A DNA stretch of 64,000 nucleotides from NCBI GenBank assembly GCA_963666565.1, contig OY762911.1, positions 2,112,001 to 2,176,000 on the forward strand, given 5' to 3'. Source of the DNA: Thermoanaerobaculia bacterium (lineage in GTDB: Bacteria; Acidobacteriota; Thermoanaerobaculia; Multivoradales; Multivoraceae). Under the pieces are notes generated by a model. That model saw nothing but the letters and a program-made list of their open reading frames with translations, had not been told where the DNA came from and searched no databases. Position 1 is the first letter of the stretch, and each line of letters begins with the position of its first letter. Shown one piece after another: positions 1 to 15,667 of this stretch. Both the position numbers and the translations under genes were made by a program.

Positions 1-3000
1 CCCAGCGGAACGCCCGGCCGCCGCAGTGACCTCCGCGTTCGATGCCATGCACGGCGACCGGCATCTGGAACCGGTAGTCCTCGTCGTCCGAGATCTGGGA
101 CTGGTGCATGAGATCCACGTCGCACACGGCGAGCGTGCGGAGCGCTCCGGCGCCGAGCAGGGACGCGGGCGCCCCGGGATCGCACTGCCGCACGGCCTGG
201 TTCTCGACGGAGACCTCGAAGGCCGGCATCTCCTCCCGGTCCTCGCCGGCCGACCGCAGGAAGCGGCGGGCGACGAAGCGGTGCCCGTTGGCATAGATCA
301 GGTTGCCGGGTACGTACTCCCGCAGCGCCATGCCGGTCGGGCGGGGCAGGTTGAAGGCGAGCGCTCCCGAGTGCCAGAAGGGGACCTCGGCCATCGCCTG
401 GACGGACCCCGTTTCGAGCCCGTAGCCGGGGAGGAAGCCGTGGGCCGCCAGCACGTTGAAGGTGTTCGCGTCGTCCTGGCCCTGGGCGTCGCGGCGGCTC
501 GGGCGCGCCTGCCCCTTGAGCCGTTTGACCAGCCGGTCGCAGCGGCGGAACAGGGCGTCGTCTTCCGGGTCGAGCGCGCCGTGCCGGCGGCGGGTCTCGT
601 GCAGCCTCTCCATCTGCGCTCGCGCCCAGTCCAGCCGGCGGCGCAGGGACCGGGCCGCGTCCTCCAGGCCGAAGACGAACTCGTCGATGCAGCGGCCGAG
701 CGCGTCGGTGGCGACGGCCGCGGCGTCCGCCTCCGGCCAGCCTTGGCCGAAGGCGGCCTCGGCTTCGGCTAGCAGTGCCCCGCGATGCCGGCGGACGACG
801 TCAGCGAGCGGCCCGAAGTCGAACGGGGCGGCGCGCACGGAACCTCCATCGAACAGCCAGGACGAGACGCGGCGCGGCAGGCAGCCTTCGAGCGCGGCCC
901 GGATCCGCTCCCGCTCGGCGGGGTCGTCGCCGTCGTCGGCCTCTTGGCGGGTAAGCCGCTGGAGCCCGGTGAGCACGCATGCGTTGACGTGTTTGCGGAC
1001 CATCACGTCGTTGCTCAGGTTGAAGGCGGGCGGGTCGACCCGGCCGGCGAGCAGCTTCTCGGGCTCCGCGAAGTAGGCGCGGTCGTGCGACACGGGCCGG
1101 CAGTAGGTGAGATCGACCGCCATCCGGTGCCGCCGGCCGGCGCGGCCCGCGCGCTGCCAGTAGTTGGCCGGCAGCGGCGGCACGTTGCGCATGAGCACGG
1201 CGTCCAGCGAGCCGATGTCGACGCCGAGTTCGAGGGTCGCGGTGCAGACGAAGCAGTTCACCGCGTCGCTCCCGCCCTTGAACAGGTTCTCCAGGCGTTC
1301 CCGTTGCTGGTGGGGGACCATCGCCGTGTGCTCTTCGGGGCGCAGCATGGAGTAGCCGCCGTCCAGGAGCTGCAGGTCGTAGTCGTCCGGGTCTTCGCGC
1401 AGCCACTCGAGCGTGCCGTTGCACCGCCAGGCGGGGCAGCGCTCGTGCGGCGTCCGGCGGACGGTGCGGGCGCGGCAGCTCCGGCAGCGGTAGACGCCGT
1501 GGTGTGGCGACAGTTCGAGGCGGTCGCCGTCGACCTGGCAGACGCCGCTCGCGTTCGGCAGCGGCCGCCCGTGGGCGCCGACGAGCCGGACCGGCCGGAG
1601 CAGTCCGCGCTCCGTGAGCATCCCGAACAGGCTCCGCAGCAGGTCCTCCGTCTGCTCCGGCTCGGCGCCCCACTTGGCCGCCATCTGCTTCATCGTCGTC
1701 TGGCCGCCGTCGCTCAGCCACTGGAGGACCCGGTCCGGCGAGTCGCCAGGGCCGCGCTGCAGCTTGACGCCCCTCGGCCCGCCGAATCGCCGGAGGTACC
1801 CGTGCTGCCTCTCCAGGTCGCCGGCGAGGCGGAACTTGGTGAACGTCAGGTACTCCCCGTCGTGGAGGATCTTCCGTCGGCGCACGTAGTCGAGCGCGGC
1901 GGCGACGCCCTCCCGCATGGACTCCGGCGGCAGCCCGAGCCGGTTCGCCCAGTCCCGGATCCACGGAAGCGAGGCGTCCAGCCCGGCGTAGTCGACCTTC
2001 ATCCGGCCCCACGGCTCGAGACCCAGAGGCTGCCGGGCGGACTCCGCGACCTCCTGCAGCACCTGCATCCGCAGGAACTTCAGGCGCTCGTCGCGGTGGC
2101 GGCGACCGGCCGCCTCCGGGCGGGCCACCACCCACACCTCGGGGATCAGCGCGCGCGAGAGCGCCTCGTTCTTCTCCAGGGCGTCGTCCAGGTACCAGGT
2201 CAGGTCGCCGACCGAGCGGCAGCCGCCGGGGCCGAGCCCGTCCGCCATCAGCGACCGCAGCCGGAACCGGCGCGCGTGGTCCTTCATCCAGCCGGCCTGG
2301 AAGGCGGCGTCCTGGCGGTTGTCGCAGAACACGAGCAGGCGCGGGCGGGCCGAGTGGTGGACCATGTCCTGGGCTAGGACGTGGACGTCGGCGGCGTTGC
2401 TGGCGCGAACCGATCGCGCTGGCTCGCGGTAGCGGCCGCCGCCGGCGCGGTGGCCCGGTGTGCTGCATGAGAGGCAACTCGTCAGGACGCCGGGGCGTTC
2501 GCGGTTCTGCCGCACCGCGTGGAGCCGGACGCGGGGGTCGGGAGCGCCGCAGCCGAGGCAGGCGCCGCCGGCTCGTTCGTGCGCGGCGCCGCAGTGCCGG
2601 CAGAGGTGGACGGGCGCGGTGCGGCGCTCGAGGACGCTTGGGGCTTCGCCGGTCCCGGCGCCGCGGCCGGGTGCCGGGCCGCCGCCGTTGGTGCTCCCGT
2701 CGCGGCGGCCGGATCCCGTGCCGTGCCCCTTCTCGTCTTCGCCGTCCTCCTCGTCGCCGCCGATGAGCCGGTCGACCAGAACCGCCCTCCTGCCCCCGAG
2801 CGCCTCGTCCAGCGGGGGCCAGAAGACGCCGCGGTCGCTCGGTTCGCCGCCGCCGGGGCGGCGTCCGTCGAAGGAGAAGTCCTGGAGATGGGCCTCGAAG
2901 TAGTGCTGCCCGCAGGTCGTGCAGGTCAGAACCGGCAGACGGGCCGTTTGCAGCGCTTCGTCTTCGGGAACCTGGGCTGCGCTCTCGCGCGCCGCACGCG

Positions 3001-4690
3001 AACCGCTCCGAACGCCCATCGGCCGCCCGGACGCCATGCGCTCATCCTGCCCGCTTCCGGTCTTCCCGGTCGCTTCGGCACTGGCGGTGCCGGCGGCCTC
3101 GCCATGCTCGATCTCGTCTTCCGCCGCCAGCCACAGCCGCGGTTCGCCGGTCTCGTCCGGGAACGAAACGACCGCGCCGGGGATTCCGCGCACGAAGCCG
3201 TGGACCACGGGCCGCAGCAGGGGCCGCCCCTTGCTGCGGGCCGCCGCGGCCAGGGTCAACCAGGCCAGGATCTCGGCCTCCGCGATCTCCCGGCCGATGG
3301 CTTCCCGGAGTTCCGCCGGCAGTTCGTGCAGCGGCCGCGGCCGGTGAAGCGCCTCGTTCAGCCGGTAGACGATCTCGCTCCGTGCCAGGGCTTCGTACAG
3401 CGCCTCGGGCCACGCGCCGGCGGCGAGCTCGTCGCCTGCGAGCGCCCGGTACGCGGCCCGAACCGCGTCGCCGGGTCCATCCGGGTCGTCCTCGACCGCC
3501 TCGACGCAGGCGGCGAGAAGGCCGGCCGCGTCTTCCGGCCCAGTGGCTGCCTCTTCAGGCCCGGCGCCGCGGCCGCCGCTCGCGGACGGAGCGCCAGCCG
3601 CCGCGGCGGCGCCCATCTCTTGGGCTGCCGCGTCATGCCGCCGCCGCGCCTCGCTCCAGACCTCCGGCTCGTAGTCCTCGCCGACCGTCTCCACCGACTC
3701 CTCCGGCACGCCGAAGAACCGCGATGCGAACGCGCGGGCCGCGCCGGGCCGCTCGGGGTCGACGATCGTCGCCGAGGTGGCGACGCAGACCGTGTCCGCG
3801 GCCCGGCGGCCGCAGAACGCGCGCAGCCGGCGAACGAGGCACGCCGTCTCGGCGCCCATCGCGCCGGTGAACGTGTGCGCCTCGTCGAACACGAGAAAGT
3901 CGAGCCGGGCGCCGTGGAACAGCTCGGCGTCCCGCTGCCGGGTGAGCAGCAGTTCCAGTTGCTTCACGTTCGTCAGCAGGATGCGCGGCTGCCCGCCGGG
4001 GGAGCGCATCGCTTCGCGCGAGCATGCTTCCTCCGGCGGAAACACGGACTCGCCGCTCTTCGCGGCCTGCACCTCGGCGAGCCTCGCCTCGTAGTCGGCC
4101 CGCGACGCGCCCCGCGGCAGGCGGATGCCGGCGACGCCGCTCTCGTTCTCCGGCGTCTTGCCGACGTACATCCCGAACGAGACGCCCGTGCCCGCCAGCA
4201 GCGAGCGCAGCCGCATCAACTGGTCCTCGGCCAGCGCGTTCATCGGGTAGACGATCACCGCGCTGATGCCGGACGGCGCGCCCTCGTCCCGCAGCTTCAG
4301 GCAGCGGCTGACGACGGGGTAGAGGAAGCACTCCGTCTTGCCCGAGCCGGTACCGGTCGAGACCAGCGTCGAGCACCCCGCGGCGATGGCGCGGATGGCC
4401 TGCTCCTGGTGCCGGTAGAGCGCCTCGATGTCCTCTGGAATCCGCTGCTCCAGGTGCGGATGCAGCAGCCCCTCGGCCGCCAGGTCCGCCACCGGCGAGC
4501 CCGTCCGAAACGGCCGCGAGAGACTGACGAACGGCCCCCGCAGCAACGGCGACCGCCGCGCCTCGTCGAGCGAGAGGAGTTCCCGCATCTGCCCGTTCAA
4601 CCGCGGATCCGCGAACGGATAGGCCCGCAACTGGTAACGGAGGAAGCTCTGGAGGACCTTCTCCGTGAAGACGACGGGGTTCAGCGCCAT
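1..4690 (-). CDS. Large DEAD/DEAH-box SF2 helicase, YprA/DUF1998-type, DISARM-related; 3' end runs off the window
   Basis: Absent from the ORF track, presumably because no stop lies in the window. Segments translated by hand from ATG at 4690: MALNPVVFTEKVLQSFLRYQ; Q-motif LYRHQEQAI; Walker A STGTGSGKTE; motif Ia VYPMNALAEDQ; DEAH (VFDEAHTFTG); LVFCDNRQDAA; TATLELGVDIG; motif VI YWQRAGRAGR; several CxxC pairs (CTTC, CRHC, CLSC, CRSC). Confidence 0.9.
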   Translation of the reverse strand, partial: MALNPVVFTEKVLQSFLRYQLRAYPFADPRLNGQMRELLSLDEARRSPLLRGPFVSLSRPFRTGSPVADLAAEGLLHPHLEQRIPEDIEALYRHQEQAIRAIAAGCSTLVSTGTGSGKTECFLYPVVSRCLKLRDEGAPSGISAVIVYPMNALAEDQLMRLRSLLAGTGVSFGMYVGKTPENESGVAGIRLPRGASRADYEARLAEVQAAKSGESVFPPEEACSREAMRSPGGQPRILLTNVKQLELLLTRQRDAELFHGARLDFLVFDEAHTFTGAMGAETACLVRRLRAFCGRRAADTVCVATSATIVDPERPGAARAFASRFFGVPEESVETVGEDYEPEVWSEARRRHDAAAQEMGAAAAAGAPSASGGRGAGPEEAATGPEDAAGLLAACVEAVEDDPDGPGDAVRAAYRALAGDELAAGAWPEALYEALARSEIVYRLNEALHRPRPLHELPAELREAIGREIAEAEILAWLTLAAAARSKGRPLLRPVVHGFVRGIPGAVVSFPDETGEPRLWLAAEDEIEHGEAAGTASAEATGKTGSGQDERMASGRPMGVRSGSRAARESAAQVPEDEALQTARLPVLTCTTCGQHYFEAHLQDFSFDGRRPGGGEPSDRGVFWPPLDEALGGRRAVLVDRLIGGDEEDGEDEKGHGTGSGRRDGSTNGGGPAPGRGAGTGEAPSVLERRTAPVHLCRHCGAAHERAGGACLGCGAPDPRVRLHAVRQNRERPGVLTSCLSCSTPGHRAGGGRYREPARSVRASNAADVHVLAQDMVHHSARPRLLVFCDNRQDAAFQAGWMKDHARRFRLRSLMADGLGPGGCRSVGDLTWYLDDALEKNEALSRALIPEVWVVARPEAAGRRHRDERLKFLRMQVLQEVAESARQPLGLEPWGRMKVDYAGLDASLPWIRDWANRLGLPPESMREGVAAALDYVRRRKILHDGEYLTFTKFRLAGDLERQHGYLRRFGGPRGVKLQRGPGDSPDRVLQWLSDGGQTTMKQMAAKWGAEPEQTEDLLRSLFGMLTERGLLRPVRLVGAHGRPLPNASGVCQVDGDRLELSPHHGVYRCRSCRARTVRRTPHERCPAWRCNGTLEWLREDPDDYDLQLLDGGYSMLRPEEHTAMVPHQQRERLENLFKGGSDAVNCFVCTATLELGVDIGSLDAVLMRNVPPLPANYWQRAGRAGRRHRMAVDLTYCRPVSHDRAYFAEPEKLLAGRVDPPAFNLSNDVMVRKHVNACVLTGLQRLTRQEADDGDDPAERERIRAALEGCLPRRVSSWLFDGGSVRAAPFDFGPLADVVRRHRGALLAEAEAAFGQGWPEADAAAVATDALGRCIDEFVFGLEDAARSLRRRLDWARAQMERLHETRRRHGALDPEDDALFRRCDRLVKRLKGQARPSRRDAQGQDDANTFNVLAAHGFLPGYGLETGSVQAMAEVPFWHSGALAFNLPRPTGMALREYVPGNLIYANGHRFVARRFLRSAGEDREEMPAFEVSVENQAVRQCDPGAPASLLGAGALRTLAVCDVDLMHQSQISDDEDYRFQMPVAVHGIERGGHCGGRAFRW

Positions 4691-4825
4691 GAAGTCGGCA
4701 AGGCTACCGCCTTGGGTCTCGTCGTTTCGCCGACGTCGAGCGTCCCGGGTCGGATTGACTGGTGCCTGCCGTGGTACGTCCCTGGCGGCCATATGCTCGG
4801 AGACCGGCCACGCCAGAGGAGTGCC

Positions 4826-5068
4826 ATGAACAAGGAACCGGACTACAGAGGGGTCGCCAAGGTGTTCTGGAGCGGAGGCAGCCAGGCGGTGAGGCTTCCG
4901 GCGGCGTGCCGGTTCGAGACCTCCGAGGTGGACGTCATCAAGGAGGGAGACCGGCTCACGCTGCTTCCGCGCGGGAAGAACTGGGGCGCGTACTTCGATT
5001 CCAAGTCCCGCGGGAGCCTTCCGGCGCGCAGCCAGTCGCCACTTGAGGAGCGGGACCGTCTCCGCTGA
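4826..5068 (+). CDS. AbrB/SpoVT-fold VapB-like antitoxin (80 aa)
   Basis: RBS GAGGAG before ATG 4826; AKVFWSGGSQAVRLPAACRFETSEVDVIKEGDRLTLLP is the classic VapB/VagC N-terminus. It is the real C-terminal part of the spurious 2519..5068 ORF. Confidence 0.85.
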   Translation: MNKEPDYRGVAKVFWSGGSQAVRLPAACRFETSEVDVIKEGDRLTLLPRGKNWGAYFDSKSRGSLPARSQSPLEERDRLR

Positions 5069-5080
5069 TTCCGTTCTCGG

Positions 5081-5578
5081 TCAGGTACGTGACGGCGTCA
5101 GCCGTCGTGAGCAACGGCGGCGGTGGAGGAAGTCGTTTCGACGCGCCGGCGCCTCCTTGGCCGGGAACGCGCTACGCCGGTGGCCGGGGATCTCCGGCAG
5201 GAACCGGAGGTCCTCGAAGTCGGTCTTGAGATTCTCGTCGTGAGCGACGATCACGAGTGCGTCCGACGCTGCCGCCAGCGCGAGCATGGGCTTGTCCTTC
5301 TCTCCGGAACGCGTCTCCACGTCGCGCAGGCGATCCTCTTCGCGCCGGACGAGTTGGTCTTCGATCAGAAGCGCAAGGCCGTTCTGGCTGTAGCGCCGAA
5401 AGAGAGCGGAGACGTCGGAGTCCCGCTCGAGCTCCCGACCGGCGCGACCGTAGGTCGAGAATGCGACGCGCCCGTGGCCATCGCCGATCCAGCGTCGAAG
5501 CTGTTGGCCCGCCGATTCGGGAGACGCCTGCTTGAACACATCGAACGCACTCGCGTCGAACACCACCCGAGTACACAT
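5081..5578 (-). CDS. PIN-domain-like nuclease (165 aa)
   Basis: PIN-like acidic tetrad: VVFDAS...GRELE...EKDKPMLALA...VAHDENL. Starts 9 nt after the stop of the ATPase gene. Confidence 0.65.
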   Translation of the reverse strand: MCTRVVFDASAFDVFKQASPESAGQQLRRWIGDGHGRVAFSTYGRAGRELERDSDVSALFRRYSQNGLALLIEDQLVRREEDRLRDVETRSGEKDKPMLALAAASDALVIVAHDENLKTDFEDLRFLPEIPGHRRSAFPAKEAPARRNDFLHRRRCSRRLTPSRT

Positions 5579-5587
5579 GGACGGCGC

Positions 5588-6886
5588 CTACCGGCGAAAA
5601 CCGAGGAGCCGCTCGGTTTCGTCGAGGAAGAAGTGCCGGAATCCTGGCGGCGCGTCGCCCAGGTTCGCCTGCCTGTCGACCCGGATGCCGTGCAACTCGG
5701 TGGACATCCGGTCGTCGGCTCTCTCGAAGTAGACGATTCCGAGATCGTCCGGGTCAACTTCCCCCGACATGACGGCGATGCGAAACCAGTCGGGGACGTG
5801 ATCGCTGTGCGACTCGACCAGAACCCGGCCTCCGCGTGAGGCGATCGACCGAACCAATGCCGCTTGAGCTCGCGGATGCAGGTGGGCTTCCGGCTGCTGC
5901 AGGAGGATTGTTGCCTCCTCCGGCGCCGAGGCGATCGCTTGGAGCAACGGCAGCGCACTCTGGATGCCGAAGCCGACATGGACCAGGTTGTAGGGTTCAC
6001 CCGAAGCGTTGGCCCAGACTTCGTAGTGACCCAACGCTCCCCGCCGCACCTCCAGGTCGCTGAAGATCCCCAACTTCCTGCCCAGTTCGCGGATCTCCTC
6101 CAGCGTGTGTGCGTCTACGTTCCGACCGAACGGGTTCGACCCATAGGCGGGCCTGCGTTCCCATCCGTCCGGGTCGTTGTTCGCGATGACCAACGCGCGT
6201 TCGGGGGTACGCAAAGGAACGTTCCGGCGAAAGAAGTTGACGAATCCGGCAAACATTCTGTCCGATTCCGGCGTCGGGTCGCCCGTCTGCTTTCGCCGGA
6301 GCGTGAGATTTCCGTCATATGGCAGATGGCCTCGCATCACGGACCGTGACAGCCAGGTGCTGGGCTGCGCATAGGAAACGGACGACTGCGCGAAGTCGAA
6401 CTCGAAGCCCGGTCCGACGACGCGCCAGGTTTCGTCGTCTTCGGAGGAGGATCGGTCGACGCGAATGACCTTGAAAGCTGGCCCGTCTTCGCCGTCCGTC
6501 GCGAAACGGAGCTCCAGCTCGCGCTCTCGTGGTTCGCCGTTGGCGCCCCTGTCGTACGTGACGCGGATCCGGTCGTAGTGGTGGTCCCGCAACGTGGCTT
6601 CGAGAGAAAACGTCGCCGACCCGGAGCGGGCCATGGCCGCGAAGGAGTCCATCCAGAACGGAGGCCGGGCGAAGTGGTTCTCGTCGTCCAAGTCGTCCCA
6701 GGTGGAGCGTTCCCGATCCCACTTCTGCAGGTTCGCCACATGCGCAAGCCCCTGCAGGCATCCGAGAAAGGTCGACTTGCCCGCGCTGTTTTCGCCCACG
6801 AGCACCGTGATGCGGGGCAGTTCAGCCTGATGGGTGCCCGCGAAGCAGCGGACGTCGGTCAGAGAGAGCTGGGTCAGTGCGCTCAT
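5588..6886 (-). CDS. ABC-type (AAA_21/DUF3696-like) ATPase (432 aa)
   Basis: True start MSALTQLSLTDVRCF at 6886, ATGA overlap with the upstream E1 stop; Walker A GENSAGKST; signature-like HVGFGIQSALP; Walker B/D-loop ILLQQPEAHLHP; H-loop VESHSDH; DUF3696-like tail PPGFRHFF. Confidence 0.85.
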   Translation of the reverse strand: MSALTQLSLTDVRCFAGTHQAELPRITVLVGENSAGKSTFLGCLQGLAHVANLQKWDRERSTWDDLDDENHFARPPFWMDSFAAMARSGSATFSLEATLRDHHYDRIRVTYDRGANGEPRERELELRFATDGEDGPAFKVIRVDRSSSEDDETWRVVGPGFEFDFAQSSVSYAQPSTWLSRSVMRGHLPYDGNLTLRRKQTGDPTPESDRMFAGFVNFFRRNVPLRTPERALVIANNDPDGWERRPAYGSNPFGRNVDAHTLEEIRELGRKLGIFSDLEVRRGALGHYEVWANASGEPYNLVHVGFGIQSALPLLQAIASAPEEATILLQQPEAHLHPRAQAALVRSIASRGGRVLVESHSDHVPDWFRIAVMSGEVDPDDLGIVYFERADDRMSTELHGIRVDRQANLGDAPPGFRHFFLDETERLLGFRR

Positions 6887-8361
6887 GGTCCGGAAGGTCC
6901 CGTGAGTCTTCGCAGGAACCGTTGCAGCCGTATCACGAGCCCGGGAGCGCCGGAGGCCGGCGCTTCCGCCCCAGGCTGGGCCTGTTCGTCCAGGAACGGG
7001 TACACCGCCCGGTCCCCCAGTGCCGTTCGGGCCTCTACTTCGCACCGTTCGCGGCACCGCTCGTCCGCGACGCCGAGCGTCCCCGGCACGTAGCTGTAGT
7101 GGAGCTTGCCCGCGTCCTGCGGCCACCAGTCGTCGCCGACCACCATGCGCAGCATCTCCAGGGTCATCAGGCTGGCGAGGTTGGCGCTGAACGGGAACAC
7201 GTTCTGGTTCGTCGGCTTGCCGCCAGCCATCCTGGCGAGGTAGGCGGGGTCGTCCAGGGAGCCGTCCCGCTCGAGCACGACGTCCGACGTCGTGTACTGT
7301 CCGTCGCAGCGCAGGCAACGGCGTTCCGGCCCCGAGCGGACCACGCTCCAGGTCGCCTGGCCGAGCGTGCCGTCCTTCTTCGTGTCGACGAAGACCCCTC
7401 CGAAGACGACGGGAATACAGTGGGCGTAGGCGATGTGGTTCATCAGGTCCTTCGGCAGGGGGCGGTCGACGCAGGAGAACAGGATGTCGCAGTCGAGCGC
7501 GGCGGAGAAACAGTCGCGCTGCTGCAGCCAGCCGGCGTGGGCGTCCACCCGGAACCCGGCGGCCGTCGCCGAGCGGCGCAACCCGTCGGCGGCGAGTTCC
7601 ACCTTGAGCCGACCCACGTCGTTCTCGCCAGCGTACAGGAGGCGGTCGAGGTTGTGCGCCTCCACTCGGTCGGCATCCACGAGGACGACGCGCTCGACGC
7701 CGATGCGCGCCAGCGTCTCCGCCACCAGGCAGCCCACGCTGCCCAGTCCCACGACGCCGACTCGCAGGCGCGCCAGGTCGGCCTGGCGGGCGGCGCCCCA
7801 GGTGTCGATGGTCCGCCTCAGGGCGCGGCGCCGCTCCGGCGGGGGCGCCAGTTCGTCGTTGCAGGTGAGCCTCATGCGACGACCGACAACGCGCACCTTT
7901 CGGCACCACGTTCGCTCGAATCCGCTGGCGGTCCGATCCCAGAAACGCGCGCTCCAGGCCTCGTCCGTGCCGAGGGTGAGCCCCACGAGGGGCAGGTGGG
8001 TCGCTCGCGCCGGCGCGGCGATGCGGTCGCGTTCGGCGCTCACGTCCTCCCGGCTCATTCCCTGCCAGCCGGGGCTGGGGTGGCTGTGGAGGAAGGCCAG
8101 CCCCGCCTCTTTCTCGCAGGCCAGGCGCACGGCGCGCGACAGGTAGTCGGCTTCGAAGCTCGCGCCGCCGTGGAGCGCTCGTTCTCCTTTCCGCGGGAGG
8201 ATCAACTCCGAGACCAGCGCCGTCGTCCGGCTCGCGCCCCGGCTGGGATTCCAGAGCGCGAAGCAGAGGTCCTCCTGCCTCCTCCCCGCGCGCAAGTGGG
8301 CCAGCAGGTGCTTGCAGGCGGCTTCGTGAACCGGTTCGGCGAGCGCGGCTTCGAAGTTCAC
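6883..8361 (-). CDS. JAB/MPN+ peptidase fused to ThiF/E1 activating enzyme (BubCD-like, 492 aa)
   Basis: GTG start at 8361 overlaps the E2 stop (GTGA). JAB motif E(QEDLCFA)...HSHP...MSRED; E1 motifs GVVGLGSVG, VDADRVEAHNLDR, SCVD, RCLRC and C-terminal CRERC. Confidence 0.9.
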   Translation of the reverse strand: MNFEAALAEPVHEAACKHLLAHLRAGRRQEDLCFALWNPSRGASRTTALVSELILPRKGERALHGGASFEADYLSRAVRLACEKEAGLAFLHSHPSPGWQGMSREDVSAERDRIAAPARATHLPLVGLTLGTDEAWSARFWDRTASGFERTWCRKVRVVGRRMRLTCNDELAPPPERRRALRRTIDTWGAARQADLARLRVGVVGLGSVGCLVAETLARIGVERVVLVDADRVEAHNLDRLLYAGENDVGRLKVELAADGLRRSATAAGFRVDAHAGWLQQRDCFSAALDCDILFSCVDRPLPKDLMNHIAYAHCIPVVFGGVFVDTKKDGTLGQATWSVVRSGPERRCLRCDGQYTTSDVVLERDGSLDDPAYLARMAGGKPTNQNVFPFSANLASLMTLEMLRMVVGDDWWPQDAGKLHYSYVPGTLGVADERCRERCEVEARTALGDRAVYPFLDEQAQPGAEAPASGAPGLVIRLQRFLRRLTGPSGP

Positions 8362-8732
8362 AGTTGCTCCAGAACGCGCAGGAGGTGGCGCCTGACGTAG
8401 GTTCGCATGTTCTTCTGGGACGGCTCCAGCGTGTCCCAGAAGTCGCTTGGAGGGAAGCTGAACGCCCACCACCGGGCGCCTTCGAACTCGTGCTCCGAGT
8501 GCTTCGTAAAATGCGTGCCTTCCAGGTTGCGAAAGTGAATGAAGTGCGGCGGATACTCCGGGTAGGCATCTTCCTGGAAGCTCAGCCCGATAAGAAGCGT
8601 CCGTCCCTTGAAACGACCGTTCTCGACGTGGAAGGGAAAGATGACTCCCGCTTCCCCGGCGCCGTTCCAGGACTCGACGACGCGGGCTTCGAATCCGAGT
8701 TCCCTCAGTTCGCGGGCGACCTCTTCAAGCAC
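8358..8732 (-). CDS. Prokaryotic E2/UBC-like protein (124 aa) with no cysteine
   Basis: YPEYPPHFIHF resembles the E2 YPxxPP motif; WWAFSFPP places a Ser where E2 family E proteins have their WSR-type Ser; lies between Ubl and E1 genes. Confidence 0.7.
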   Translation of the reverse strand: MLEEVARELRELGFEARVVESWNGAGEAGVIFPFHVENGRFKGRTLLIGLSFQEDAYPEYPPHFIHFRNLEGTHFTKHSEHEFEGARWWAFSFPPSDFWDTLEPSQKNMRTYVRRHLLRVLEQL

Positions 8733-8736
8733 GGGC

Positions 8737-9195
8737 TCAGGCGACAGGCGTTCGTCCGGCGTGAAGCGCCACGAACTGGTCGCCGTCCGCGATCGGCACT
8801 TCGTCGCCGAGGTTCTCGTACCGGGCTCCGGTGCGGACGTTGTCCAGGTAGTAGCTCTCCAGCTCGCTCGTGTCGATCGCGGCCTCCGAACCGGCCCGCC
8901 GCAGGATCTCCTCCAGCGTCAACGGCGTCTTCGCCGTCACCTGGCGCTCGCCGTTCACGGTGTACCGGATCCGCGTCCCCACGGGATCCGGCGGCGCCTG
9001 CCCTGGCCTGGCCCCGAACGCGTCGCCGTCCCGCAGGTCGACCTCGGCGGCCGGGTCGGTCCACTTCTCTCCGGTTTCCACGCGCACGAGCACGGCGCCC
9101 GTCGAGTCGATGCCCGCCTGCTCCAGGAGCCACGCGACCGTGACCGGACTCCGCGGAGACGTGAACCTGCGGTCGTTGATCGTGAAGCGGTACAT
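8737..9195 (-). CDS. Multi-ubiquitin (two beta-grasp domain) Ubl protein (152 aa)
   Basis: ATG 9195 with GAGG upstream. Two similar repeats, YRFTINDRR...VDLRDGDAF and IRYTVNGER...VPIADGDQF; C-terminus LHAGRTPVA. Stop lies 4 nt before the E2 start. Confidence 0.8.
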   Translation of the reverse strand: MYRFTINDRRFTSPRSPVTVAWLLEQAGIDSTGAVLVRVETGEKWTDPAAEVDLRDGDAFGARPGQAPPDPVGTRIRYTVNGERQVTAKTPLTLEEILRRAGSEAAIDTSELESYYLDNVRTGARYENLGDEVPIADGDQFVALHAGRTPVA

Positions 9196-9394
9196 GCTGG
9201 CTGTCGCCTCGATTCTGGCGGCCTGTACTTCGTCGGCCGTGAGTGGCCCGTTGGGCTGACGCGACTCTTCTTCGACTGGCCGTCGTTCTGCGGCGAGACT
9301 ATACCGGCCGTGAGGCCGGGGGCCGGACATCTCAGGCCTTCCGCCGCGGGCGGGAGCCGACTGGCGCCGTGGGCTTGCGCTGTAGATTCCGGCC

Positions 9395-9919
9395 ATGCCG
9401 TCCGAGCGCAAGATCCTCGTCATCGCCGGGCCGAACGGGGCCGGGAAGACCACCTTCGCCAGGGAGTACCTGCCGTTCGAGCCGGCGTGTCCGATCTTCG
9501 TCAACGCCGACCTGATCGCGGCGGGCGTCTCGCCGTTGAACCCGGAAGCGGCGGCGTTCCGGGCTGGCCGCCTGATGCTGGAGGAGATCGACCGCCACGC
9601 GAGGCAAGGCAGGAGCTTCGCCTTCGAGACGACCCTGGCCGGGCTCGGCTACGTGCGGAGGATCCGGCGCTGGCGGAGATCGGGCTACGTCGTCAAGCTG
9701 ATCTACCTGCCCCTCGCGACGCCCGAGGAAGCGCTCAGCCGCGTGGAGCAGCGAGTGAAGCAGGGCGGCCATCGGATTCCTGAAGATCTCGTCCGGCGGC
9801 GCTTCGACAGGAGCGTGGCGAACTTCCGGAAGGTCTACCGCGATCTCGTAGACTTCTGGGTAGTCGTTGACCGGCGAGGTCGCAGATTGGTCGTTGTCGG
9901 GGAGGGAGCAAACCAGTGA
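9395..9919 (+). CDS. Zeta-toxin-like/AAA_33 P-loop kinase (174 aa)
   Basis: IAGPNGAGKTT, FVNADLIA, SFAFETTL, RVKQGGHRIPED motifs. Confidence 0.85.
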   Translation: MPSERKILVIAGPNGAGKTTFAREYLPFEPACPIFVNADLIAAGVSPLNPEAAAFRAGRLMLEEIDRHARQGRSFAFETTLAGLGYVRRIRRWRRSGYVVKLIYLPLATPEEALSRVEQRVKQGGHRIPEDLVRRRFDRSVANFRKVYRDLVDFWVVVDRRGRRLVVVGEGANQ

Positions 9920-10119
9920 GCGCGGAGAAAGAACAGCGTCCCGTGCTGAAGCTCGACGATCCCGACATCCAGGCGGTGCCTGCGGCGCTGGAACGCGCGG
10001 TCCGCCGCGCACACAGGGATGCGCACCGGCACGGCACCGGCGTTCTCGTGGTCGAGGACGGCAAGATGGTGGAGGTTCCCCCCGATCCGGCGCTGTACGA
10101 AGACGACAGGGCTCCGTAG
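9916..10119 (+). CDS. Small partner protein of the zeta-like ATPase (67 aa)
   Basis: GTGA overlap with the upstream gene; ALERAVRRAHRDAHRHGTGVLVVEDGKMVEVPP resembles the small proteins that usually follow this ATPase family. Confidence 0.65.
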   Translation: MSAEKEQRPVLKLDDPDIQAVPAALERAVRRAHRDAHRHGTGVLVVEDGKMVEVPPDPALYEDDRAP

Positions 10120-10172
10120 GCCGCCTCGCCTCGCCCGACCCGAGGCGCGGTGTTCCCCTGGAAGCGATTCAG

Positions 10173-10403
10173 ATGAAGCTGACCCTCACAGTGGATCGGG
10201 AAATCCTCCGGCGAGCCAGACTACGAGCGCTTCGGGAGCAGACGTCAGTGAATGCGGTGCTTCGGGGCCATCTCAAGGCGTACGCTGCGGTCGAATCGCG
10301 GCGATGCCGCGAGGCTGTCGACCGTCTCTTGAGGCTCTCACGAACCGCTGGCGCTGGCCGCGGAGCTGCCGCATGGACTCGCGACGAGCTCCACGAGCGG
10401 TGA
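10173..10403 (+). CDS. Ribbon-helix-helix (CopG/DUF6364-like) antitoxin (76 aa)
   Basis: MKLTLTVDREILRRARLRALREQTSVNAVLRGHL...WTRDELHER, typical of RHH antitoxins that precede PIN toxins. Confidence 0.75.
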   Translation: MKLTLTVDREILRRARLRALREQTSVNAVLRGHLKAYAAVESRRCREAVDRLLRLSRTAGAGRGAAAWTRDELHER

Positions 10404-10430
10404 GCGGGACTTGACGCTAAGGAGGGACGC

Positions 10431-11612
10431 ATGGCGCAGTTCACGGTCGCGGAATGGAAGTGCATCGAGGACGAACTGACGGCGAACCCCGGGAGGTACG
10501 GGTTTCCAGACAGGGTCTACGGCTCCGTCCTTCTGGGGTCGTTCAACGTCAGGAAGCTCGGGGCGGCGAAAGGCCGGAACAAGCGGACCTGGGAGTTCCT
10601 GGCCCGCATCTGCAAGCAGTTCGACCTCATCGCGATCCAGGAGGTGATGGACGATCTCGGCGGGATGCGCCGGTTGATGGAACTCTTGGGCCCGGACTTC
10701 GAGATGATCGTGTCGGACAAGACGGGCACCTTTCCCGGAGAGCCGGGTCTCGGAGAGCGGCTGGCCTTCGTCTACAACCGGCGTGTCGTCGTTCGCACCG
10801 AGGTTGCGACGGACATCACCTTCGACCGTTCAAAGATCCTCTCGACCCTGATCGCCAACCGCGACGACGTGCACGAGGCGCTCGACCCCATGGTCGCGTA
10901 CGAGAAGAAGCTCGCGTCTTGGCAGCGACACCGGCGGGGAAGACGGCCGCGGCGGCCGAAACTCAAGCTGCCGACCTTTCTGGCGTTCATCCGCGCTCCG
11001 TTCTGCGTGAGCTTCGAGGTTCCCGGACATCCGGGAACCGAGCCGTACCGGTTCATGGGCGTGAACGCTCACCTGTACTTCGGCAACTACATCGACGACC
11101 GGCGCCAGGAGTTCGACGCGCTGATGGACTGGATCGTGAGCCGCGTCGACGAGAACGACGCGACGTACTACCCGAACTTCTTCCTGTTCGGCGACCTGAA
11201 CCTGGACTACGACAACCCGGCCAAGGACCGCGACCGAGTGGAGCGACACCTGAAGCGCTTCGACGGGGAGAGCGCCGAAGGAGTGCGGGTCAACTTCCCG
11301 TTCCTCGACCCGCATCCCGGCCGCGAAACCGTGTTCCGAACGAACGCGCGCATGACCGAGACGTTCGATCAGATCGGCCTGTTCTTCCGGGACCAGAGGT
11401 TCCCGCCGTGCGACGTGAACGAAGACATGGGCAGCCGCCCGGAGGGACCGGACTACGGCGTCTTCGACTTCGTCGACCTCTTCGCGCAGGCCGTCTTGAA
11501 GAAGCCGTTCGCCGATCTGCAGAAGCAGGAGAAGACGGACCTCGTGAAGAGGTTCGAGCACAAGGTGAGCGATCACCTGCCGATTTGGATCCGGCTGCCA
11601 CTCCCGCGCTAG
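10431..11612 (+). CDS. Endonuclease/exonuclease/phosphatase (EEP, DNase I-like) family protein (393 aa)
   Basis: Strong RBS AAGGAGG; SFNVRKLG, DLIAIQEV, NAHLYFG, FGDLN, FDQI, VSDHLPIW catalytic motifs. Confidence 0.9.
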   Translation: MAQFTVAEWKCIEDELTANPGRYGFPDRVYGSVLLGSFNVRKLGAAKGRNKRTWEFLARICKQFDLIAIQEVMDDLGGMRRLMELLGPDFEMIVSDKTGTFPGEPGLGERLAFVYNRRVVVRTEVATDITFDRSKILSTLIANRDDVHEALDPMVAYEKKLASWQRHRRGRRPRRPKLKLPTFLAFIRAPFCVSFEVPGHPGTEPYRFMGVNAHLYFGNYIDDRRQEFDALMDWIVSRVDENDATYYPNFFLFGDLNLDYDNPAKDRDRVERHLKRFDGESAEGVRVNFPFLDPHPGRETVFRTNARMTETFDQIGLFFRDQRFPPCDVNEDMGSRPEGPDYGVFDFVDLFAQAVLKKPFADLQKQEKTDLVKRFEHKVSDHLPIWIRLPLPR

Positions 11613-11721
11613 ATACACGAAGACCCATGCTGCAGCGTGGGCCTCGCAACGAGGGGTGGACCTGCGGCCTGCGAGCAGGTCGGCGGCGCCGCTGCGTTCC
11701 GTACGCCGGGCTGCCGTCGGT

Positions 11722-13818
11722 CTAACTGAATTGAGGGAGCCCAGCGTCGGCATTGGCCAGAGCGACGTCTTCAAACAGCCGTCGCCACGGTTCCCGAGCG
11801 GGCTCCGCCTGTCTGCTGTAGGGAACGTCCAGGTCCGGGTAGACCGCGCTCAATCGACCTCCCCAAAGTCCCTCGTTCTGTCGGGCTTCCTGCCGAAGCT
11901 TGGCGCGATCCCCGGGGGCAGCGAACGGGTAACCGAGCCACTTGTTCCAATGCCGATGTTGGGGGAACTCGGACCGCACTCGCGAGAACTCTTCCCGGTC
12001 GGGTCCGTGGCCGTTGATGCTTCTCGACAGCGCCAACAGCCGCGCGCTGTACGATGCCGGTCGTACGCTGAGCCACGAGTCCAGGCTCTCGTCTCGTTGC
12101 GGCGATGCGCCCGTCCGGCAGGCCACTACGAGCTCGAGCTCAGAGGTCGGCGGCGCCTGCGCGGCCCGGTCGCGAAGAACCGAGGCTTCGCTGGGCGGTG
12201 AGAAGTAGCGCTCCATGAGTTCCGTGCGGTTCCTCAGCGACGCGAGAACAGAACGGACTTGCGGCCCCATCTCCGGCTCAATCGCACGGTGTTGGAAGCC
12301 CACCGTGCGGAAGAACTGCTCGTCGTCGATGACCTTTCGAATCCGGTTCGCCAAGGGATCGTCGGTGTGGCGCATCGCCCTCTTCGATACCGCACTGCTC
12401 CACCGTTTCGTTCCCAGTAGGCGCGGCTCGATCACGTCGTTGGGGAAGTCCCGCGAAGTCTCTTTGAGCAAGTTCTCCGCCAATGTCAGCCGTTCTCTGT
12501 TTGCGAGCGCGACGATCAGCGCCGTTCTAGGCACCAGATTGTCGGGGAACCGCCGTACTGTCTCCCATCTGACATCGAGGGAAGTCTCGACGGCGCCCAC
12601 GGCCGCCAGGACCTTAGCCCAGAGGTCCCAGACGTACGAGTTACTGTTCTCGGCCTGCAGCGACTGAAGCGTCCAGTTGAGGATTTCCGTCAACTGCGCG
12701 CCGGACGGACTCTTGCGGAGCAGTCGGTCGCACAGATTGTGGGTGGTACGAACCGCGTAGTAGCTGTGGTGCGCGTAGCGGGCGTAGTTCCAGTGCCGGG
12801 TGAGCAGGGCACGCGCCTTGCGCCAGAGGCCATCGTCCAGGGCTTCGGCCGCATCCACCGCAAGAACCACCTCATCGAGCTCTGCTTTCCGTGGCAAGTA
12901 TGCGGATCGTCGCGCGGCCCGCGGCCGGTTCCCACGAGCAGGTACGTTGCGGCCAAGCCCGGTCTCGGGGACACACTGGCGTGGAAGGGCCAAGCGGAGC
13001 CAGTCGTTGTGCGCCACTGACCGGTGGCGCCCGAATCCGTGGAGGCTGCCCAATGCGCTCGCCCAGGTTTGCTTCCAGTGACTGTGATGCCGGGGATACA
13101 GGACAGTCAAAGTCGAGACGTGGCGCCGGAACTCGGCTCGCAGTTCGGAGGAATCCGTGCCGCGCTGCGACGACAAAGCGGCGAACCTCGCCAACGCCGT
13201 AGCGACCAGTCGCTCGGGCTGTACCTTGGTCGGGTCCGGGATCTTGCGGAGCCCGAGCAGCCCGATCTCGAGGCCGTCTTGCCAGTACGGGCCGGCCCAG
13301 GCCGCCTCCTCGCAAGAGGCGAACCACCTCGCCGCCAGCCGCTCGTCACGCTGGTGCTGCGCCAGGGCGAGGTCGAACTGCCGAAGGAGGTCGATGTCGT
13401 CGGGCCAGCGCAGGCTTCGAAACCGGTTGTCCCAAATGGCCACGTCGTCGATCAGGCGCGCCGGGGACGACGACAAGGGCAGGCGTGCGACCACGGCCAA
13501 CGCGTCGGAGAATTCGGCCACGTACGCTCGCGTACCGAAACGAGCGATTCGATCCGGTGGCCAGGTGCTGCGCTCTTCCAGCCACTCGATCAGCGCACCG
13601 TCGATGGTCTCCACCAGCGCATCGCGGCGAGAGCGCAACGCCTGCTGTGCTAGGAGGTCGGCAAGAAAGTCGGCCGGCTCGGCTAGCTGAAACGCGCCGC
13701 GCGCACCCCTGCCTTCCAGCAGGCTCGAGATGGCTGTGCCGGGATCGGACGACAGTGCTTCGGCCCAGGCCGCGAAGGTGCCGTCCGGACGGCGAGTCGA
13801 GTTTTCTTTGGCGACCAT
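11722..13818 (-). CDS. Hypothetical helical/TPR-like protein (698 aa)
   Basis: Long ORF with natural composition; start MVAKENS at 13818, 2 nt after the upstream stop; helical-repeat-like segment YVWDLWAKVLAAVG...WETVRRFPDNLVPRTALIVAL...AENLLKETSRDFPND. Confidence 0.7.
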   Translation of the reverse strand: MVAKENSTRRPDGTFAAWAEALSSDPGTAISSLLEGRGARGAFQLAEPADFLADLLAQQALRSRRDALVETIDGALIEWLEERSTWPPDRIARFGTRAYVAEFSDALAVVARLPLSSSPARLIDDVAIWDNRFRSLRWPDDIDLLRQFDLALAQHQRDERLAARWFASCEEAAWAGPYWQDGLEIGLLGLRKIPDPTKVQPERLVATALARFAALSSQRGTDSSELRAEFRRHVSTLTVLYPRHHSHWKQTWASALGSLHGFGRHRSVAHNDWLRLALPRQCVPETGLGRNVPARGNRPRAARRSAYLPRKAELDEVVLAVDAAEALDDGLWRKARALLTRHWNYARYAHHSYYAVRTTHNLCDRLLRKSPSGAQLTEILNWTLQSLQAENSNSYVWDLWAKVLAAVGAVETSLDVRWETVRRFPDNLVPRTALIVALANRERLTLAENLLKETSRDFPNDVIEPRLLGTKRWSSAVSKRAMRHTDDPLANRIRKVIDDEQFFRTVGFQHRAIEPEMGPQVRSVLASLRNRTELMERYFSPPSEASVLRDRAAQAPPTSELELVVACRTGASPQRDESLDSWLSVRPASYSARLLALSRSINGHGPDREEFSRVRSEFPQHRHWNKWLGYPFAAPGDRAKLRQEARQNEGLWGGRLSAVYPDLDVPYSRQAEPAREPWRRLFEDVALANADAGLPQFS

Positions 13819-13820
13819 CG

Positions 13821-14783
13821 CTATGCCACGCAATCTGCCCCGTAGTCGGCGTTGCCCGGCGTACGGCGGAGGCACCGCAGATGCGTGTCCCTGAGCTGGT
13901 TGATTGCCGCGGGGTTCGAGTCCCGGCTTTCGCTCAACGTGCCCACCGCGACCCAGTGCTCGGGCCGATAGTCCATCCTGGCATGAATGAGCTCCGCTGC
14001 CAGATGAGTGCAATCCGATTCGGGCGCGAGTCCTACGGCGTGACCGACGTTCGAGAGCTTCGGAGCGCTGAAGTACGTGTTCGACATCGGAAGATCCAGC
14101 ACCGTCGGCGCGGCAAACACCGTGGCGCGTGGTTCAACTTCGGAGTAGACGTCCAGGACTTCCTGGACGCTGTACTTGAACAACGCCAAGGTCAGAGACT
14201 CCCCAGTGAAGTGGTGCGCGAGTCCGCATCGCTCGGAGAACACCCGGGGCCAGTCGGTACGGTGCTCCAGATCGGGGAACTCTGCGGCGAACGCGACGAA
14301 CCGAGGTCGCCCGTCAGCGAACTGCCGGTTGAGGAACCGCGTGAAGGCGGCAAGGGCGTCGTCGGTCGGCGAAGGAGTGCCGGTAGCCGTTGGGCCGGCG
14401 GGACGCTTGGCATGCCGGTTCGAGATCCACTGGCGGAGTCGGTCCACGCTGAGGGCTCCGGCAGCGTAGTCGTTGAGCGGTTTGTCTATCCGCTCGGCGC
14501 GGTAGAGTTCCTGGTTGGCTTCAAGGTGTGGCCTGAGCGCATCGCCAGGATCGAACGCGGCGCTCAGGGGGTGTCTGCGGCGCACGTCTACCTTGACGTA
14601 GCGGCGGTGCGCTGTACGCCAATCGTCCCAATTGGCCGGTCGGTCCATGCGGGCCTCGTAGACCGCTTGGCGGGGTGGGGAGACGCGTTCCTCCAGACAG
14701 AGGTTCGCCCACTCGGCGGCGGCTTCCTGCTCCGCGGGTACGGTCGCCATCAGGTCTGACAGGGCGGTGTCGGCGAAGTTCAT
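13821..14783 (-). CDS. Hypothetical protein (320 aa), possibly a divergent ADP-ribosyltransferase-like fold
   Basis: Natural composition; coupled to the downstream gene. The fold guess rests only on the spacing of LYRAE, RPRFVAF and AELIH and is weak. Confidence 0.7.
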   Translation of the reverse strand: MNFADTALSDLMATVPAEQEAAAEWANLCLEERVSPPRQAVYEARMDRPANWDDWRTAHRRYVKVDVRRRHPLSAAFDPGDALRPHLEANQELYRAERIDKPLNDYAAGALSVDRLRQWISNRHAKRPAGPTATGTPSPTDDALAAFTRFLNRQFADGRPRFVAFAAEFPDLEHRTDWPRVFSERCGLAHHFTGESLTLALFKYSVQEVLDVYSEVEPRATVFAAPTVLDLPMSNTYFSAPKLSNVGHAVGLAPESDCTHLAAELIHARMDYRPEHWVAVGTLSESRDSNPAAINQLRDTHLRCLRRTPGNADYGADCVA

Positions 14784-14875
14784 CGGGGAATCCGTGGCGC
14801 GTCCGCCTTTCGGATGGGGAGTCTACGTCAGGCTCGCTCCTCAGGTTGCCGGCTGATCGCTCTGCCAGCGGCCGA

Positions 14876-15343
14876 CTACTCCTCACGGAGGGCCGCCAGC
14901 CACTCGGCCGAGGACGTGAAGTAGCGGCCCTCGGGCGATTCGGCCTTGTCCCTGAGTCCCTCGGAGATCAGGAGGGCCCAACGGACTTCCTGCATCGTGC
15001 CGACGATCCGGGTGTACAGGTTGTCCAAGCGGTCGAGTGCCTCGAAGACGCCGTGCGAAGGGGGGTGCCGGCGTCGACGAAGGCGCGGCGCGAGTGCCTT
15101 AGCTGCTCCTGACGGCGCTTGAAACAGACCTCGGCCTGTTCGAGGGCAGGCGCGACTTCGCCGTCGGGGTCGGGTCTCCCCGGAGGCGAGCCTCTCGATC
15201 GCCTTCGCCAGCGTGTTGCCCGCCCAGTCGATCACGGAGAGGAGGTTGTCATACTGCTGGCACAGCCCGTTCGTGAGGGGGTCGAGCAGGCCGTCGGCCG
15301 CCCGTGACGACTCCTTCGCCCGAGCCACCGCCTCCTCCGCCAT
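14876..15343 (-). pseudogene. Hypothetical gene with two apparently compensating frameshifts
   Basis: N- and C-terminal thirds read as normal protein. The middle (about 15175-15060) is Arg/Pro junk in frame but reads DPDGEVAPALEQAEVCFKRRQEQLRHSRRAFVDAG in a shifted frame, ending at a G6 run (15060-15065). Confidence 0.5.
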
Positions 15344-15446
15344 CGGCCCAGTGGGCGACCTGATGCGCGCCGCTGTGCCGGGGAGAATCGCCCGACTCGG
15401 CGCCGCTACCGAGGCCGCTGAGAGTGCTAGCCTCGGCTGCGGCACG

Positions 15447-15585
15447 ATGGCTACGAGAACCGCATTCGACGTCTTCCGCGGCTGCGGCGGCCTGACTCTC
15501 GGACCGAAGCAGGCGGGCTTCCGCGTGGTCGGCGCCGTCGACATCGACCGGCTCGCACTCGCGGCGTACGAGTCGCGCGTTCAGC
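15447..15585 (+). pseudogene. N-terminal remnant of a C5-cytosine DNA methyltransferase
   Basis: MATRTAFDVFRGCGGLTLGPKQAGFRVVGAVDIDRLALAAY corresponds to Dcm motifs I-II (FxGxGG...); no PCQ/ENV motifs follow. Confidence 0.75.
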
Positions 15586-15667
15586 ATGCACGTGCGCAAG
15601 TGGTGCGCCGGTGCGGAGACCGGCTTCGCTCTCAGGATAGACGACCTCACGAAGCCCTGCGACGAGG

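Follow-up and report, generated by a model that had tools for sequence, protein, structure and literature searches.

We analysed a 64,000-nucleotide stretch of the genome of a Thermoanaerobaculia bacterium (assembly GCA_963666565.1, contig OY762911.1, positions 2,112,001 to 2,176,000; hereafter the window, numbered from its first letter) and focused on five consecutive genes on its reverse strand, between positions 5,081 and 9,195. Judged from their sequences and predicted folds, these genes encode a bacterial ubiquitin-like tagging pathway of the Type I Bub kind that is devoid of BubE and appears to be hard-wired to an ATPase-PIN effector resembling that of the Menshen system. With a probability of roughly 60%, we consider the five genes to be one horizontally mobile operon that acts as a single conflict system, most likely directed against phages. 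In the direction of transcription, the genes are:

8737-9195, reverse strand: ubiquitin-like protein (Ubl; BubA-like), 152 amino acids
8358-8732, reverse strand: E2-like protein (BubB-like), 124 amino acids
6883-8361, reverse strand: JAB/JAMM peptidase-E1 fusion (JAB-E1; BubCD-like), 492 amino acids, with a GTG start that overlaps the E2 stop
5588-6886, reverse strand: ABC-type ATPase of the AAA_21/OLD-ABC kind (NsnB-like), 432 amino acids
5081-5578, reverse strand: PIN-domain protein, 165 amino acids

The TGA stop codon of the Ubl gene is followed by GCCC and the GTG start of the E2 gene (4-nt gap), the E2 and JAB-E1 genes share a GTGA overlap (CTGTGAAC), the JAB-E1 and ATPase genes share an ATGA overlap (CCATGAGC), and the TAG of the ATPase gene is separated by GCGCCGTCC from the ATG of the PIN gene (9-nt gap). 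The five same-strand genes with these gaps and overlaps had been listed in an initial interpretation of this DNA made from its letters only (the sequence-only reading), and both the open reading frames (ORFs) and their junctions were reproduced exactly. The guanine-plus-cytosine (GC) content at third codon positions is 0.91 for Ubl, 0.77 for E2, 0.89 for JAB-E1, 0.80 for the ATPase and 0.78 for PIN, and because values of 0.77-0.91 are as expected in DNA of ~0.64-0.75 GC, we read all five frames as real genes. A scan for promoters and terminators returned no promoter-like site and one terminator-like site, located in the PIN gene, which is fewer than in shuffled sequences. None of the five proteins could be placed in a specific NCBIfam family.

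Within the tagging cassette, the JAB-E1 fusion has the clearest relatives. Its best solved relative is BubCD of Citrobacter, matched at 8.2e-17 by the single sequence and at 1.4e-22 by the family profile, in the latter case as one colinear stretch (66-330) running through both domains, and Pfam ThiF covers residues 183-410 (6.1e-33). The JAMM residues E30, H92, H94, S103 and D106 do not vary among 27 relatives; likewise invariant in 27 sequences are the nucleotide loop G205-x-G207-S-V-G210, the cysteines C349, C352, C436 and C440, and the tyrosines Y356 and Y374, both of which lie after the CxxC motif. The catalytic tyrosine of the E1 could not be assigned to either Y356 or Y374 by alignment with BubCD, which ends at residue 330-335. 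No relative was found in a viral contig collection using the JAB-E1 peptide patterns.

The E2-like protein lacks any cysteine among its 124 residues. It had no match in Pfam (E≤0.1), PADLOC or NCBIfam, sequence searches of solved structures gave nothing meaningful, and Foldseek returned no match at E≤0.001 for its AlphaFold2 model (predicted local distance difference test score (pLDDT) 94, predicted template modelling score (pTM) 0.88). Its fold was assigned with VIA-align, where BubB of Citrobacter came first out of 48,161 representative chains (9eav_D; Z 9.4, root-mean-square deviation 3.3 Å, 112 of 124 residues aligned), compared to Z≤7.1 for eukaryotic E2s and ubiquitin E2 variant (UEV) domains. 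The invariant columns of 26 sequences comprise F52-Q53, Y57-x-E59-Y60-P61-P62-H63-F64, W88, S92, P94-P95 and W99-D100, and S92 would be the equivalent of S333 in BubB, going by its position in the fold rather than by a residue-by-residue alignment.

The Ubl consists of two predicted beta-grasp halves. Pfam Multi_ubiq matches it below the threshold (E 0.0012; 19.4 bits compared to a cut-off of 24.5), all 30 matches of its ESM Atlas features (30/30, score 0.92) are Multi_ubiq clusters, and a profile search of solved structures gave nothing meaningful. Its start position is common to 14 relatives, with G147, T149, V151 and A152 being invariant. The protein ends in ...HAGRTPVA, immediately followed by the stop codon, and this terminal G-x-T-P-V-A is nearly invariant among relatives. 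From the 65 related loci that carry it, 39 stop exactly at this point, 19 add 2-13 variable residues, and in seven the Ubl ORF continues in frame into E2, resulting in fused ORFs. Because exact ends, short tails and E2 fusions coexist, we read the TPVA end as a processing site, a pattern that mirrors the cleavage of BubAB by BubCD in Citrobacter (10.1101/2024.11.21.623953). The mature, activatable end of the Ubl is most likely the alanine of TPVA, which the fused JAB would expose where needed; the Ubl of the window itself would require no such processing.

Type I Bub operons (formerly 6E.1/DUF6527) are described as containing BubA, with one to three beta-grasp domains, and BubB or a fused BubAB, together with BubCD and the serine protease BubE; biochemical work has shown them to conjugate the Ubl by way of an oxyester on a tyrosine of the E1 and on a serine of the E2 (10.1101/2024.11.21.623953 = PMC11601596). 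The cassette shares with them a Ubl that is probably of the Multi_ubiq type, the occurrence of Ubl and E2 as either separate or fused proteins (both forms are found in their Table S1), an E2 without catalytic cysteine but with an invariant serine and a fold nearest to BubB, and a JAB at the N-terminus of a single-domain, homodimer-type E1 nearest to BubCD. It differs from them by the absence of BubE, with the ABC ATPase and PIN genes standing behind the E1 instead, by an E2 that Pfam Prok-E2_E does not recognise, by the setting of the conserved serine (S-x-P-P-x-D-F-W-D instead of S-x-H), and by a Ubl that ends in alanine (TPVA) and not in glycine; this clade suggests an unusual Ubl with an alanine terminus. 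Bil operons likewise combine Ubl, E2, JAB and E1 functions, though with a separate JAB, an E1 with tandem adenylation domains and a catalytic-cysteine domain, and a cysteine E2 (10.1101/2024.11.21.623953), whereas here the JAB is fused to a single-ThiF E1 and the E2 is free of cysteine. Of the two types between which the sequence-only reading had left the cassette, Bub was hence retained and Bil discarded. In type II systems for anti-phage signalling on the basis of cyclic oligonucleotides (CBASS), the Ubl-like conjugation machinery Cap2/Cap3 is also co-encoded with an immune effector, which it is thought to regulate. These systems have no separate Ubl, conjugate the C-terminus of their own enzyme, fuse E2 to E1 and use a nucleotide-driven effector; the E1 domain studied here gave weak matches to the PADLOC E1-E2 models.

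For the second module, the most informative match was that of the ATPase to the PADLOC model NsnB (1.2e-38, best of all models, in two stretches including 294-420), followed by PDC-M55A (1e-20), AriA (8.3e-18 and 1.1e-14) and weak matches to GajA and PtuA. The assignment to AAA_21/DUF3696 made by the sequence-only reading was borne out for AAA_21 (1.5e-17, next to AAA_15 at 7.4e-12) and not for DUF3696, which Pfam did not detect at E≤0.1. The Walker A motif is intact (G31-E-N-S-A-G-K37-S-T) and a G-x-G signature motif is present, while the Walker B position reads L-L-Q330-Q331-P-E in place of D-E in invariant columns of 38 sequences. Stand-alone relatives of the ATPase share the QQPE motif, and more distant ones read ENPE.

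The PIN protein of the window has no Pfam match at E≤0.1, and sequence searches of solved structures returned nothing meaningful for it. However, 14 of 18 sampled relatives match Pfam PIN or PIN_3 at E≤0.01, six of them passing the PF01850 cut-off, and these matches support the fold assignment alongside VIA-align, in which nearly all of the top 30 rows for the AlphaFold2 model (pLDDT 95.1, pTM 0.89) are named PIN-domain or VapC proteins, led by 1y82 (Z 8.6) and VapC21 (5sv2, Z 8.5). The best Foldseek matches were VapC toxins as well (6a7v, VapC11, 2.9e-3), none of them at E≤0.001. Across 58 sequences, D8, D95 and D120 do not vary, while E49 and D114 are retained in 90% or more, so that the protein looks catalytically competent and is probably an active RNase. 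The residues M1-C2 are also invariant, and the PIN core is followed by a tail of ~40 residues with conserved positions (R135, P139, F150 and C156) and no C-terminal nuclease domain.

The sequence-only reading had likened this ATPase-nuclease pair to PARIS, Septu and Gabija. These systems do pair an ABC/OLD-type ATPase with a nuclease effector, yet their effectors are Toprim or HNH proteins and not PIN, their models match the ATPase much more weakly than NsnB, and they carry no Ubl-conjugation genes; the pairing of AriA with the Toprim/DUF4435 protein AriB known from PARIS is absent here. We consequently replaced this comparison with NsnB/NsnC of the anti-phage system Menshen (NsnA-NsnB-NsnC), in which the ATPase holds a PIN-like domain (PMC12065111). 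Both systems have a non-canonical Walker B motif, a G-x-G signature and a small PIN-fold protein after the ATPase, corresponding to NsnC with its PIN-like N-domain after NsnB. The Walker B place reads E-N in NsnB, which also has the G-x-G signature (PMC12065111), compared to QQ here, and NsnB is an ABC ATPase with a DUF3696 region at its C-terminus. Furthermore, the PIN-like domains of NsnC lack the acidic residues and are called inactive in that paper, unlike the PIN protein described here with D8, E49, D95, D114 and D120, which in turn has no counterpart to the C-terminal nuclease domain of NsnC. NsnA (ParB-DUF262) was absent among the conserved neighbours of 74 related loci and from the scanned flanks of the window, DUF262 not having been searched genome-wide, and the tagging cassette occupies the place of this sensor.

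The 74 loci were collected with two peptide patterns of JAB-E1 from a set of prokaryotic genomes in which each species is represented once. By hidden Markov model (HMM) searches, JAB-E1 was detected in 74 of them, the ATPase in 73, E2 in 72, and Ubl and PIN in 70 each. All five genes were detected in 65 of the 74 loci and in the same order, in agreement with tblastn, which is far more than expected by chance. The sequence-only reading had proposed counting how often an ATPase and a PIN gene accompany the cassette, and its idea that the two modules belong together would have suffered had they never co-occurred, which is clearly not the case. With respect to the incomplete loci, L014, L033 and L076 are cut by contig ends, L071 is without ATPase and PIN, L029 has a truncated ATPase and no PIN, L006 has no detectable PIN, L044 and L068 are without Ubl, and L072 is rearranged. 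The 4-nt overlap between E2 and JAB-E1 was kept in 69 of 72 loci. Across the module boundary, an overlap of the JAB-E1 and ATPase genes was seen in 50 of 72 loci, amounting to 4 nt in 32 of them and to 1 nt in the other 18, and the two genes are at most 15 nt apart in 60 of 72. The five proteins co-vary in their pairwise identities (r 0.73-0.89 over 58 loci), and no sixth gene emerged, as no flanking ORF family occurred in at least eight of the 74 loci, though long genes cut by the locus ends could escape this count.

All 74 loci come from metagenome-assembled genomes, whose labels belong to at least seven groups at phylum level and include Acidobacteriota groups, Gemmatimonadota, Latescibacterota, Binatia, Spirochaetia, Rhodothermales, and Alpha- and Gammaproteobacteria. 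Several of the genome names, for example Poriferihabitans and Palauibacter, were presumably coined for sponge-associated lineages. Full-length JAB-E1 relatives were present in 7 of 401 genomes of a phylum sample and, within the genus, in 3 of 10, and we therefore regard the cassette as accessory and mobile. The spread of the cassette, at 53-85% identity in JAB-E1, over uncultured bacteria from no fewer than seven phylum-level groups suggests that selection is strong and transfer frequent.

A few single loci deviate from this layout. In L072, an open frame at 10124-11146 on the forward strand fuses the N-terminal two thirds of PIN to the C-terminal part of the ATPase; this locus is also without E2 and part of JAB-E1 and is apparently a copy that has decayed or been rearranged. 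Insertions of ~1.3-1.9 kb split the operon at differing junctions in three further loci, namely between Ubl (5683-6147) and E2 (7621) in L049, between the end of E1 (9452) and the ATPase (10787) in L053, and in L025, where a PIN-like match is found at 12600-12932.

We also scanned metagenomes with the ATPase alignment and scored the 80 loci kept with profiles of the five proteins. Two of these were five-gene operons (L077, L078), eight carried a QQPE ATPase followed by a PIN gene of the same family and no tagging genes (L079-L084, L087, L100), and two were QQPE ATPases at contig edges (L085, L093). The other 68 matched the ATPase profile only, without an adjoining PIN gene of the family, and the five that we inspected carry ENPE, as NsnB does. 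When the tree was rooted with this ENPE group, the 73 Bub-linked ATPases formed one clade (support 0.765) that was sister to seven stand-alone QQPE ATPases (support 0.997). It follows that a self-sufficient ATPase-PIN module joined a Bub-like cassette once and that the link has been kept since this single origin.

The same clade has lost BubE. DUF6527 (PF20137, BubE) had no match in the whole 97%-complete genome, while a positive-control genome was matched, and it was found neither in the cassette nor in the flanks of the 74 loci. By contrast, BubE is part of every Bub operon catalogued in the published survey (10.1101/2024.11.21.623953; PMC11601596 Table S1). As this catalogue was built from DUF6527-containing operons, it excludes variants without BubE (PMC11601596 Table S1). 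Among distant E1 relatives in the phylum sample, two loci (L170 and L174) carry DUF6527 directly behind the E1 and the E2 of a third locus of the same phylum (L173) matches Pfam Prok-E2_E; by their gene content, we take these weaker E1 matches to belong to ordinary Bub operons.

We next weighed whether the two modules form one system or merely travel together. According to the second view, a BubE-less Bub cassette and an ATPase-PIN abortive-infection pair, both defence systems in their own right, were fused once and have since been inherited side by side without cross-talk. A number of observations speak against a single system, several of which would fit such co-travel. ATPase-PIN pairs of the same family exist alone and, wherever the DNA upstream could be read, beside unrelated genes, those in L079, L080 and L083 adjoining an aminotransferase, a permease and RtcB. 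Conversely, Bub cassettes exist without the pair, either with DUF6527 (L170, L174) or with neither, as in the genome G332, which has the five-gene operon plus a second, divergent Ubl/E2 and JAB-E1 cassette (L175; G332:C1:1578000-1591000, at about 5193-7351 on the forward strand; JAB-E1 profile E about 1e-121 to 1e-126) that lacks both the ATPase-PIN pair and DUF6527. In L004, the ATPase-PIN pair (9513-11320, reverse strand) is inverted and convergent with the tagging genes, and it has diverged discordantly, with identities to the window of 54% for the ATPase and 34% for PIN compared to 83% for E1 and 85% for E2. The partnership therefore tolerates module exchange, which in L004 looks like an exchange within the family, given that its ATPase falls inside the Bub-linked clade. 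Defence genes often cluster, and 10 of 17 sampled loci have others nearby: 15 of 99 flanking ORFs of at least 180 amino acids, counted without a random-locus control, had PADLOC matches at E≤1e-15, including Avs4, type I/II/III restriction-modification, DrmMI/type IIG, the HEC-01A ATPase, mad3, PDC candidates and Cas7e. Moreover, the monophyly of the Bub-linked ATPases is moderately supported, the 74 loci are a single orthologous clade whose counts are silent on other Bub clades, no lysine of the ATPase or PIN alignments is invariant besides K37 of Walker A, and published Bub operons have conferred no phage protection in E. coli so far (10.1101/2024.11.21.623953).

Nevertheless, we regard co-travel without cross-talk as unlikely. 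Of the 74 loci, which carry at least seven phylum-level labels, 65 have the complete arrangement, and no further neighbour is conserved; the start/stop overlap between the modules persists in 50 of 72 loci, BubE is missing precisely in this clade, and the Bub-linked ATPases group together. These findings strongly support the inference of the sequence-only reading that the two modules may act as one system, whereas its proposed mechanism, Ubl conjugation controlling or targeting an ATPase-gated PIN RNase, stays a hypothesis.

How a single system of this kind might work can be outlined from the literature on Bub and on Menshen and PARIS. The E1 domain would adenylate the C-terminal alanine of the Ubl (...G-x-TPVA), which would then move via oxygen esters, first to a tyrosine of the E1 (Y356 or Y374) and subsequently to S92 of the E2, before being placed on a target. 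The fused JAB would trim precursors or Ubl-E2 fusions after TPVA and, with BubE being absent, may also remove the tag. The ATPase, whose Walker B motif is predicted to be hydrolysis-impaired (QQ for DE), would hold a catalytically intact PIN RNase in check until a trigger allows the latter to cleave RNA, leading to growth arrest. As for the coupling, we favour that the tagging state is either a signal read by the ATPase or a switch on the ATPase-PIN complex, such that the nuclease would fire only when tagging reports infection. More specifically, tagging of a phage or host protein, or of the ATPase-PIN complex itself, might trigger the nuclease by means of an ATPase that reads the mark and releases active PIN RNase; we put this forward tentatively, as a possible rather than a probable route. 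Prediction of a 1:1 complex between ATPase and PIN gave scores of 0.60, 0.19 and 0.33 compared to 0.25 for the control, which is neither support nor contrary evidence. Because K37 is the only invariant lysine, there is no support for an acceptor lysine at a fixed position of the ATPase or PIN. The invariant N-terminal cysteine of PIN could, speculatively, accept the Ubl; it is also present in the stand-alone ATPase-PIN pairs.

The coupling might also run in the opposite direction. In this scenario, the Ubl pathway is the primary defence and tags phage proteins, and the ATPase-PIN pair stands by in case tagging fails or is inhibited, for instance by a phage inhibitor or deconjugase, which the pair would sense and answer by killing the cell. 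Precedents for both halves exist, since Bil systems, whose anti-phage role has been shown, tag a phage tail protein (Bub preprints, including 10.1101/2024.11.21.623953), and ABC ATPases such as AriA of PARIS are described to set a nuclease free once they sense a phage trigger (PMC12065111); in addition, the stand-alone pairs indicate that ATPase and PIN are a complete sensor-effector unit by themselves. The sequences do not distinguish such a guard from the activation model above, no target is known for any Bub pathway (10.1101/2024.11.21.623953), and we consider a guard function improbable.

Apart from immunity, the operon could serve mobile DNA as an addiction or stabilisation module, or be an RNA-turnover switch linked to stress or host association in uncultured, possibly invertebrate-associated bacteria. 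PIN proteins are classic toxins of toxin-antitoxin systems, and the best structural matches of the PIN protein are VapC toxins. The cassette is patchy and mobile, all 74 loci stem from metagenome-assembled genomes, and several of these bear the names that we associate with sponges. Published Bub operons have so far not protected against phages and are in many cases linked to DNA-damage regulators (10.1101/2024.11.21.623953). However, the cassette contains no conserved antitoxin-like gene, in particular none of the VapB type, the partner of the PIN gene being an ABC ATPase instead, defence genes are frequent in the flanks, and the closest model of the ATPase, NsnB, derives from a validated anti-phage system (PMC12065111). 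A non-immune role therefore appears very improbable to us, and an anti-phage system remains the preferred reading.

The sequence-only reading had regarded this five-gene combination as a candidate for a new system, and in the literature searched, with most subscription journals and PDF supplements being outside its reach, we found no description of a cassette of the Bub type linked to genes for an ATPase and a PIN nuclease; the only papers on Bub operons in it were the two Corbett preprints. Table S1 of the Bub survey (PMC11601596) does not contain the words ATPase, nuclease, PIN, Acidobacteria or sponge, and neither the Menshen paper (PMC12065111) nor a nuclease-NTPase preprint contains the word "ubiquitin". 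The clade represents a natural experiment in which the usual de-tagging protease has been lost and translational coupling connects the tagging genes to a predicted ATPase-gated RNase with an easy read-out, which makes the role of bacterial ubiquitin-like tagging directly testable. It also widens the known designs of ATPase-nuclease defences by a tagging cassette where Menshen has a DNA sensor. If true, the proposed coupling would constitute the first bacterial immune pathway in which a downstream effector decodes a Ubl mark, in the way that ubiquitin is read in the innate immunity of eukaryotes, and the first biological output for the orphan Bub family.

With regard to the neighbourhood of the operon, a DEAD/DEAH-box helicase of more than 1597 amino acids (2-4792, reverse strand) lies directly downstream of the PIN gene and runs off the window. 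We tested this helicase as a component of the system and rejected it, as only 8 of the 74 loci have it close to the cassette, on either side. It is 72-79% identical beside the cassette in seven close relatives and 56% identical in L034, and we read its adjacency as lineage-specific synteny outside the system. In the genome with two cassettes, the neighbours of the second one (L175) are a divergent helix-turn-helix plus peptidase M78 (IrrE-like) gene and a DDE transposase, with metabolic genes downstream. Over positions 1-20000 of the window, GC is 0.73-0.75 at 1-4000 and 0.64-0.69 in the cassette and the genes to its right, a drop that is consistent with an acquired island. The remaining genes around the operon are:

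4829-5068, forward strand: MazE/AbrB-type antitoxin-like ORF, 79 amino acids (Pfam MazE_antitoxin 7e-06)
9395-9919, forward strand: zeta-toxin/AAA_33-like kinase (Zeta_toxin 7.6e-11), divergent from the Ubl gene
9916-10119, forward strand: ORF of 67 amino acids, no family, overlapping the kinase gene
10431-11612, forward strand: endonuclease/exonuclease/phosphatase (EEP)-family protein, 393 amino acids (3.7e-06)

The MazE-like ORF ends 13 nt before the end of the PIN gene on the opposite strand, has no toxin gene behind it and lacks conservation alongside the cassette; it resembles the remnant of an orphan antitoxin. The kinase, the 67-amino-acid ORF and the EEP protein may constitute a further toxin- or defence-type unit in this low-GC stretch.

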